Part shown: positions 27,777 to 29,328 of the stretch, in pieces
How the letters are laid out: each line of letters starts with the position of its first letter
How positions within the stretch are numbered: position 1 is the stretch's first letter
Assembly (NCBI RefSeq): GCF_044324875.1
Contig: NZ_CP172185.1
Source of the DNA: Escherichia coli
GTDB taxonomy: Bacteria > Pseudomonadota > Gammaproteobacteria > Enterobacterales > Enterobacteriaceae
Direction: 5' to 3' (one strand)
DNA length: 64,000 nt
Translations under genes and position numbers: made by a program
Notes under the pieces: model-generated
Databases searched by the model: none
What the model was told of the DNA's origin: nothing
Seen by the model: only the letters and a program-made list of their open reading frames with translations

Positions 27777-27797
27777 TAGTCACGCTGGCGAAGTTCG

Positions 27798-27860
27798 GTA
27801 GGCCGGAGAAGGCGTTCACGCCGCATCCGGCAATTTTGCGCCGATTGCCTGATGCGACGC
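27798..27860. repeat. REP/BIME unit and the left half of an interrupted palindromic unit
   Basis: ggtaggccggagaaggcgttcacgccgcatccggc then gcctgatgcgacgc directly abutting the IS left end. Confidence 0.6.
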
Positions 27861-27915
27861 GGGCTGAACTGCACCCCAAATGTTGGACATAATCTGACAT
27901 CTGAAGGTGCAGTTT

Positions 27916-28437
27916 ATGAAACATTCATTTGAAGTAAAACTTGCCGCTGTAAATCACTACCTGGCTGGTCATGCAGGCATCATTTCTACGGCAAAACTCT
28001 TTCAACTTTCTCACACCAGCCTCTCACACTGGATTAATCTTTTTCTTCTTCACGGTCCTCGGGCACTGGATTGCAGACACAAGCGTAGCTATTCTCCTGA
28101 AGATAAACTTTGCGTGGTTCTTTATGCTCTCGGGCATTCTGAGTCTCTACCCCGGGTAGCTGCCCGGTTTAACATTCCCAGCCACAACACGGTTAAAAAC
28201 TGGATAAAAGGCTACCGCAAATCTGGTAATGAGGCCTTTATCAGGCGCTGGAAGGAGAAAAGCATGACCCGTTCTGATGATACCCATGAAAACGAGGCAA
28301 ACATGACGCCGGAAGAGATGAAGAATGAGCTGCGTTATCTTCGCGCAGAAAATGCATATCTGAAAGCCATGCAGGAGCATCTCCTGGAAAAAAAGCGCCA
28401 GGAGCTGGAGAAAAAACGAAAGTCATCCGGAGCCTGA
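27916..28437 (+). CDS. IS3-family transposase OrfA (HTH DNA-binding)
   Basis: ORF 27907..28437; ATG at 27916 with gaagg SD; HTH region plus C-terminal leucine zipper-like LRYLRAENAYLKAMQEHL. Confidence 0.8.
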   Translation: MKHSFEVKLAAVNHYLAGHAGIISTAKLFQLSHTSLSHWINLFLLHGPRALDCRHKRSYSPEDKLCVVLYALGHSESLPRVAARFNIPSHNTVKNWIKGYRKSGNEAFIRRWKEKSMTRSDDTHENEANMTPEEMKNELRYLRAENAYLKAMQEHLLEKKRQELEKKRKSSGA

Positions 28438-28541
28438 GGTGCGGACACTGCCAGTCTGACCTGTTAAAGGCTGCAGGGCTGGCCAGAAGCACGCTGTACT
28501 ACCAGCTGTCACTGCAGAAGGCTAAGGACAAGTATGCTGAT

Positions 28542-29264
28542 GTGAAACAGCTCATAGCCTCCATCTTCCATGAACACCGGGGATGTTATGGGTACCGGCG
28601 GATCCATTGTGAGCTTCAGAAAAGAGGTCTTAAGTTCAGTGGCAAAACGGTGCGAAAACTGATGCAACAGCTCGGCCTGAAGTCTCCTGTGCGCCTGAAG
28701 AAATACCGGTCTTACCGGGGAAATATGGGACTCGCTGCAGAAAATATCCTTCAGCGGCAGTTCAAAGCGGAAGCTCCCTGTGAGAAATGGGTGACAGATA
28801 TCACCGAATTCAGGGCTGGCGGACAAAAACTGTACCTGTCCCCGATACTTGATTTGTTTAACGGGGAAATCGTGGCGTGGGAAACGGCCTGCAGGCCTAC
28901 AGAGGAGCTGGTGAAGCGGATGTTAAATAAGGGGCTGGAAAGCCTTGCTGAAGGGGAGAAACCGCTGCTCCACAGTGATCAAGGATGGCATTACCGGATA
29001 AAAAGTTATCAGTCCGCCCTGGCGGACAGAGGGTTAGTGCAGAGCATGTCGCGCAAGGGCAACTGCCTTGATAATGCGGTAATGGAGAACTTCTTTGGTC
29101 ACCTGAAAGAAGAAATGTACTATCGCCGGGACTACAGAAATGTAGAAGAGCTGGAAAATGCCGTTAACGAATACATAACTTACTGGAATCAAAAAAGAAT
29201 AAAACTCAGTCTTGGGGGACTCAGTCCGGTAGAATACCGGACTGAGCATCAAAAAGCCGGTTAA
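28542..29264 (+). CDS. IS3-family transposase OrfB (DDE catalytic domain); frame is open from ~28396, likely made as an OrfAB fusion by -1 frameshift
   Basis: -1 frame relative to orfA; integrase-core signatures (D...D...E with NCLDNAVMENFFGHLKEE). Confidence 0.8.
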   Translation: MKQLIASIFHEHRGCYGYRRIHCELQKRGLKFSGKTVRKLMQQLGLKSPVRLKKYRSYRGNMGLAAENILQRQFKAEAPCEKWVTDITEFRAGGQKLYLSPILDLFNGEIVAWETACRPTEELVKRMLNKGLESLAEGEKPLLHSDQGWHYRIKSYQSALADRGLVQSMSRKGNCLDNAVMENFFGHLKEEMYYRRDYRNVEELENAVNEYITYWNQKRIKLSLGGLSPVEYRTEHQKAG

Positions 29265-29328
29265 CTGAAACTGTCCAGGTTTTGGGGTTCAGTTCACACC
29301 GCGTCTTATCAGGCCTACACGTTGAAAC

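Follow-up and report, generated by a model that had tools for sequence, protein, structure and literature searches.

How does an insertion sequence (IS) with sharply defined ends come to sit in its usual kind of target and yet carry, in place of one copy of the target duplication, three bases that the uninterrupted target does not have? The question is raised by a locus in a 64,000-nucleotide stretch of Escherichia coli DNA (assembly GCF_044324875.1, contig NZ_CP172185.1; the whole stretch is called the window here), where an element of the IS3 family separates rluA from djlA. An earlier note, made from the letters alone, had described an IS1397-like element of about 1432 bp lying between the two halves of a repetitive extragenic palindromic (REP) sequence; it saw no clean target duplication of 3–4 bp and took the exact ends to be uncertain for that reason. 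As far as sequence comparison can tell, the segment 27865–29296 is very probably a full-length and apparently functional IS1397 that sits in the loop of the z2 palindromic unit (PU) of the rluA-djlA bacterial interspersed mosaic element (BIME) and is joined to its target as GGC-IS-CAC. Both the element and its targeting of REP loops are already known, and recognizing them here is routine annotation; the sole part of specialist interest is the replaced copy of the duplication and its possible origin as the spacer of a circle junction.

The assignment to IS1397 rests on near-identity to named copies. Many complete E. coli genomes hold exact matches (100% identity) whose transposase RefSeq, through the Prokaryotic Genome Annotation Pipeline (PGAP), names "IS3-like element IS1397 family transposase"; four copies in GCA_964044245.1 are likewise identical, and identity to the CFT073 copy at mutT-yacG is 98.7%. 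According to Tobes and Pareja (PMC1525189), CFT073 carries two IS1397 copies. The proposed name thus stands, as does the proposed size: 1432 bp is the usual length at the other sampled IS1397 sites too, and the terminal inverted repeats of about 25 bp, imperfect as in the earlier description (15 of 16 positions match over the stretch quoted there), and the insertion into a PU loop are as in IS1397. The wider family is equally clear from the TG...CA ends, the 0/−1 frames with their heptamer and the rve-type DDE transposase. The frameshift-fused OrfAB scores 385 bits against the NCBIfam model transpos_IS3 (NF033516; cut-off 160), and Pfam finds in it two HTH_28 domains, HTH_21 and rve/rve_2/rve_3, the rve match having an E value of 7e-21. 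IS1397 is common: with coverage of at least 80%, a copy is found in 1707 of 5426 complete E. coli genomes, at between 1 and 40 or more places per genome and roughly 7,600 places over the whole set, and the exact OrfA protein is recorded in 1634 blocks of the assembly collection. The window itself holds one copy only.

The coding organization agrees with an intact element. GAAGGTG ahead of orfA is a likely ribosome-binding site, and the A AAA AAG heptamer lies in the X XXY YYZ register, so that the two frames and the slippery site noticed earlier are indeed present and correctly phased. A −1 slip at the heptamer would yield a predicted OrfAB of 449 amino acids, the same length as the joined coding sequences of other genomes, which PGAP marks "programmed frameshift," and the catalytic residues D295, D355 and E391, with K398 seven residues beyond the last, fall within the motifs WVTD, HSDQG and MENFFGHLK. 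Next to nothing weighs against reading the segment as IS1397. RNA folding 3' of the slip site gave no convincing stimulatory structure (z = −0.9), and a simple promoter scan found no consensus sigma-70 site within or around the IS; by eye, too, no convincing junction promoter was seen, the nearest thing being CATAAT at positions 24–29 of the left inverted repeat (IRL) with a weak −35 box. The name, moreover, is taken from PGAP and from the CFT073 copy and not from a comparison with ISfinder. This last point is the sole support for supposing a different IS3-family element that has no REP preference and entered a PU by chance; given the identity to named IS1397 copies, and given that 39 of 41 other sites of the element lie in PU loops, we regard such a coincidence as hardly credible.

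The target can be reconstructed nearly base by base. The left flank, GCCTGATGCGACGCG followed by GGC (27847–27864), and the right flank, CAC followed by CGCGTCTTATCAGGCCTAC (29297–29318), are the two arms of one PU, which other genomes carry in unbroken form as GCCTGATGCGACGCGGGCCGCGTCTTATCAGGCCTAC. The layout GCGACGCG-GGC-CGCGTC is identical in five genomes that lack the insertion and belong to two haplotypes of this interval; all five read GCGACGCGGGCCGCGTC at the insertion point, within the stretch GATTGCCTGATGCGACGCGGGCCGCGTCTTATCAGGCCTACA, and two of them (L001 and L026) equal the window at every other base between rluA and djlA. The restored unit folds into a hairpin with a stem of 8 + 6 bp and the loop GGC (z = −4.0), and the element lies at the exact 3' edge of that loop. 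The flanks are thus two halves of a single REP unit, just as had been claimed, and the alignment to empty sites that could have contradicted this instead confirms it. We take the interrupted unit to be of type z2 rather than z1 from its consensus. Together with the intact y unit, GTAGGCCGGAGAAGGCGTTCACGCCGCATCCGGC, which stands in inverse orientation across a 15-nt linker, it makes up a BIME-2-like structure, BIME-2 being defined by y and z2 units with a short linker (PMC3333891); both units are imperfect palindromes that bear a GTAG/CTAC tail. The locus is variable among strains: in some, a complete extra PU, making the interval 33 bp longer, is nested in the z2 loop region (L030, NC_022370.1, and L003), and this nested unit is present in PMV-1 and ST131 MB1341.

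That a split PU is the behavior of IS1397 is borne out by other copies. We compared 41 other distinct IS1397 sites, drawn from assemblies as well as complete genomes. The element occupies the loop of a y- or z-type PU, in either orientation, at 39 of them; perfect direct duplications flank it at 38 (4 bp long at 26 sites, 3 bp long at 12), and the flanks of different copies share about 20 bp of PU sequence. The rluA-djlA interval has attracted the element repeatedly. IS1397 occurs there in just two of the 5426 genomes, each time in a unit other than that of the window: in BH100 (L002, NZ_CP024650.2), a frameshifted copy of 1431 bp lies in the y unit with the duplication TTC, and in ST131 MB1341 (L003, NZ_CP174453.1), a copy lies in the nested extra unit with the duplication TGGC, both loci having been compared with window positions 27798–29318. 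Three independent insertions have thus struck this one BIME, each in a PU of its own, and they illustrate the strength of the element's target preference. The insertion site of the window, the z2 unit, is occupied in none of the 5426 genomes and could hence serve as a lineage marker.

Some of the other copies are of interest in their own right. In a type VI secretion cluster of GCA_964044245.1 (L016, 3734096–3738217), an IS1397 identical to that of the window is found away from any PU, with a DUF4123 gene on one side and a VasI gene on the other; H6 (NZ_CP139196.1) has it at the corresponding position. The target duplication is missing (ACAG-IS-TTAC), and the locus may mark a deletion or rearrangement junction. 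Another copy in GCA_964044245.1 (L015, 1403989–1408110) seems to interrupt a Pyr_redox_2/Fer4 oxidoreductase gene and has the duplication CGC; its target is a GC-rich near-palindrome and not a canonical PU. Between nhoA and yddE, a single y-type unit has taken up the element in either orientation in different strains (L034 and L052/L059), once with a 4-bp duplication (GTAA/TTAC) and once with just 2 bp (AA). Three copies (L046, L047 and L048) have no right end within 1 kb and look nested or rearranged; two of them precede a transposase gene of the IS110 family (DEDD), and in one, a second left end lies 821 bp from the first. Finally, a left end of IS1397 amid E. coli-type PUs on a 415-bp contig of "Microbacterium sp. 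18062" (L023, NZ_CACSKB010000521.1) almost certainly reflects E. coli contamination of that assembly.

Against this background, the right junction of the window is aberrant. With a normal 3-bp duplication, the locus would read GGC-IS-GGC; it reads GGC-IS-CAC, that is, GCGACGCG-GGC-IS-CAC-CGCGTC, with each base of the empty site present once plus exactly 3 nt on one side. The remark that there is no clean duplication was accordingly correct and describes a true property of this copy. The explanation offered for it was wrong: the same TGAAC...GTTCA ends recur at the 41 other sites, the ends of the window copy are exact, and the missing duplication belongs to this one insertion rather than to IS1397 itself. 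The junction formed by the IS end and CACCGCGTCTTATCAGGCCTACA has no exact match in the 5426 genomes, the best hit reaching 98.2% with two mismatches, and none was found in a scan of metagenomes. Where CAC does adjoin the element elsewhere, it is at the other end: next to IRL at 3 of the 41 sites and next to the right inverted repeat (IRR) at none. The three belong to TCAC duplications at two loci, both in y-type units, one between yphB and yphA (L010/L032), where the junction is present in about 200 genomes, and one near priC (L044). A related case is L042 (LR134078.1, 1443468–1445989), one of the three other sites that lack a perfect duplication of 3–4 bp. There, in a BIME cluster between eutH and eutG, the junctions read CAC-IS-CAA and the empty site GGCAA; the latter, GACGCGGCAAGCGTC, has 100% matches over 170 nt in many genomes. 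The genome with L042 also carries L044, an identical copy with the duplication TCAC, and all six of its IS1397 copies are identical.

These junctions could be explained by the way in which IS3-family elements move. Flaps on linearized IS3 were reportedly described by Sekine et al. in 1999. Members of the family transpose through a figure-eight whose spacer derives from sequence flanking the recipient end, with nicks at the 3' ends and a duplication that appears after repair (PMC7780238), and the spacer has the length of the duplication (PMC3299598). By what is known of the family, ribosomes on orfA would slip −1 at A AAA AAG to produce an OrfAB combining the N-terminal HTH domains with the rve DDE domain; the protein would bind the 25-bp terminal repeats and join one 3' end to the host DNA that lies a few bases beyond the other end, forming the figure-eight. 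Replication would turn this into a circle in which the abutted ends are separated by a spacer, copied from the donor flank and equal in length to the target duplication; after nicks at both 3' ends, the circle would integrate with a stagger of 3–4 bp, directed by the transposase to the loops of E. coli PUs. As only the 3' ends would be nicked, the spacer strands would stay on as 5' flaps, normally removed by repair. From a circle with the junction IRR-CAC-IRL, however, the 3-nt flap of the bottom strand, 5'-GTG, might be joined to the target by ligation where gap filling would normally follow, and after replication, one daughter would read L-GGC-IS-CAC-R, with L and R for the flanks, as in the window. 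Ligation of the top-strand flap (5'-CAC) would give L-CAC-IS-dup-R (dup being the duplicated target bases), and the CAC-IS-CAA of L042 would be the reciprocal product of the same junction. The source of CAC would be a donor copy with CAC beside IRL, for example one with a TCAC duplication in a y-type unit.

We consider it a real possibility, short of an even chance, that the CAC of the window is such a retained 3-nt spacer from a donor flank; the extended proposal, that the right CAC of the window and the left CAC of L042 are both donor-flank spacers ligated in place of gap filling, we hold a little more tentatively still. In favor of retention, the 3 extra nt are confined to one side and the other side keeps its GGC, and in the window and L042 alike, base pairing at the ligation point would be expected for the 5' base of the putative flap. 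Several observations pull the other way. In the window, two of the three flap bases would be mismatched; the donor could be seen only within 64 kb, where there is no second IS1397; the sampled TCAC copy at yphB-yphA differs from the window element at 8 positions and is therefore not itself the donor; and four copies of the identical subfamily in one genome have no CAC flanks. The literature yielded no description of junction-spacer retention at insertions of the IS3 family, and L042 departs from the expected sequence by one base and could owe this to a point mutation. Overall, the retention of a spacer is suggested by these junctions, not proven.

One competing account holds that a normal GGC duplication was formed and that its right copy later became CAC through two point mutations, or that CAC is a sequencing or assembly error at the boundary of a repeat. 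Imperfect duplications do occur at old insertions, and the window junction is unique and comes without independent confirmation. Here, however, the element matches copies elsewhere at 100% identity, the rest of the intergenic sequence does not differ from that of empty sites, and two substitutions within 3 bp against none in some 1550 bp nearby are very unlikely. Nor is CAC the error to be expected, since polishing with reads of other copies would have produced the commoner flanks, with T at +1. We therefore judge mutation and error, taken together, unlikely. The bases might also have been acquired by gene conversion or homologous recombination, with a tract running from inside the element into the right PU arm shared with another IS1397 copy. 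Short tracts are conceivable in strains that hold up to 40 or more nearly identical copies with about 20 bp of common PU flank; yet the donor would have to bear the right flank CACCGCGTC, with IRR followed by CAC(C)GCGTC, and it is exactly this junction that the 5426 genomes, the metagenomes and the 41 sampled sites all fail to supply. With homology of only about 19 bp on the flank side as well, conversion appears improbable.

Still less can be said for a chimeric PU, in which the element first entered a nearby unit, duplicating CAC, and its left end was then brought to the present loop by an adjacent deletion or an intramolecular transposition, with loss of the intervening DNA. Deletions mediated by an IS do leave one original flank and no duplication, and the number of PUs between rluA and djlA does vary by strain, as the nested extra unit shows; on the other hand, the two arms agree exactly with the single-unit empty site, as do all other bases of the interval, with nothing missing, and no sampled allele has a CAC-containing loop beside CGCGTC, so that we give the chimera a very small chance. 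Two further candidates were dropped. Simple reciprocal recombination between IS copies is excluded, as the right flank runs on into the native djlA, and a 1-bp duplication of an allele with the loop GGCAC was set aside, as there is no such allele among those sampled. The retention of a circle-junction spacer, if true, would mean that the 5' flaps of an integrating circle can survive repair and that abnormal "duplications" in the IS3 family are natural records of which copy served as donor, making donor–target relations readable from genomes. The replaced duplication copy and its reciprocal case thereby suggest a testable detail of copy-out/paste-in integration.

The size reported for IS1397, the length of its duplication and the determination of its specificity by the transposase form the known background to this copy, in part by way of secondary citation. 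The window copy shares with IS1397 the 1432 bp, the inverted repeats, orfA and orfB with their −1 frameshift and the insertion into PU loops of E. coli; it differs in its immediate flanks, GGC before the element and CAC after it, with no duplication of 3–4 bp. The primary literature (Bachellier 1997; Clement 1999; Wilde 2001/2003) is cited in PMC1525189. By description, ISKpn1 of Klebsiella pneumoniae, likewise of the IS3 family, has the same organization and also targets PUs, whereas it prefers the PU type of K. pneumoniae; PU specificity of this kind is attributed to the transposase (PMC1525189). IS911, IS2, IS3 and IS150 share with the window element the TG...CA ends and the DDE rve domain, and unlike IS1397, they have no strong specificity for REP hairpins. 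For IS911 and IS150, production of OrfAB by frameshifting at A AAA AAG is established. These elements use copy-out/paste-in transposition through a figure-eight, with a circle spacer taken from the flank, and for IS1397, the same would hold by family analogy. IS621 and ISPpu9/ISPa11, of the IS110 family, also insert specifically into REP sequences, but they do so with an unrelated DEDD transposase, lack such terminal inverted repeats and recognize their targets by another mechanism.

Table 1. Features of the rluA-djlA region, in window coordinates
Feature	Position	Strand	Remarks
rluA	27117–27776	+	Six-frame open reading frame; orthologous coding sequence annotated rluA; 5' neighbor of the IS, convergent with djlA
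y-type PU, intact	27798–27831		GTAG...-first orientation; hairpin z = −3.1
z2 PU, left arm (27847–27861) and loop GGC (27862–27864)	27847–27864		Identical to the empty site through GGC
IS1397, complete, apparently intact	27865–29296	+	1432 bp, TGAACTG...CAGTTCA
IRL	27865–27889	+	Starts with TG; 21 of 25 positions match the complement of IRR
orfA	27916–28437	+	Frame 0; 173 amino acids; two HTH_28 domains
Slippery heptamer A AAA AAG	28389–28395	+	X XXY YYZ register; first A is the third base of an orfA codon
orfB-frame part of OrfAB (predicted)	28395–29264	+	Frame −1; HTH_21 and rve DDE domain; D295, D355, E391, K398
IRR	29272–29296	+	Ends with CA; 21 of 25 positions pair with IRL
CAC	29297–29299		In place of the second GGC copy; absent from every empty site seen
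z2 PU, right arm with CTAC tail	29300–29318		From alignment to the empty site
djlA	29329–30144	−	Open reading frame; annotated at 816 nt in other genomes; 3' end faces the IS

Between 27600 and 29500, the order is thus rluA, a BIME of the 119-bp-type interval, the 1432-bp element and the 3' end of djlA. K-12 has, instead of the entire 119-bp BIME interval, a 1509-bp segment with yabP, yabQ and a transposase fragment. The absence of yabP and yabQ from the window, remarked on earlier, is real and is the commoner state: the short BIME allele is found in 3183 of 5425 genomes, and therefore the IS deleted nothing and the missing genes are unrelated to it. In the K-12 allele (L009/L025; K-12 positions 59296–59474), the transposase fragment beside yabQ is frameshifted and annotated as a "transposase DNA-binding-containing protein"; in a local blastn comparison, it showed no similarity to IS1397. 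As for the host, the y hairpin after rluA is intact, and the z2 hairpin, which would end or stabilize djlA transcripts, is split by the element; lying between convergent genes, the IS probably does little harm, and a large phenotypic effect is not expected.

The surrounding DNA is itself somewhat unusual. Among the 5426 complete genomes, the best identity is 98.8% for the flanks of the IS and 98.7% over 20 kb for window positions 29400–49400; with values no higher than these, the window comes from a lineage that is poorly represented in the set. The GTDB species representatives lack it too; among them, the left end of the IS gave just two hits, neither of which was the window. It differs from K-12 at further places. 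Between apaH and folA, about 1.44 kb (37129–38570) have no K-12 counterpart and contain two plus-strand open reading frames, 37174–37773 (199 amino acids) and 37809–38276 (155 amino acids), neither of which has an NCBIfam match. A similar insert of about 1 kb (10924–11935) lies between sgrR and the thiamine pyrophosphate (TPP) riboswitch of thiB, with a minus-strand reading frame of 189 amino acids (11160–11729), again with no NCBIfam match. The gene setA, which occupies about 1.2 kb between leuD and sgrT/sgrS in K-12, is absent at 8938–8979, where only about 40 bp separate the end of leuD from the 3' end of sgrS (Rfam match 8978–9204, minus strand).

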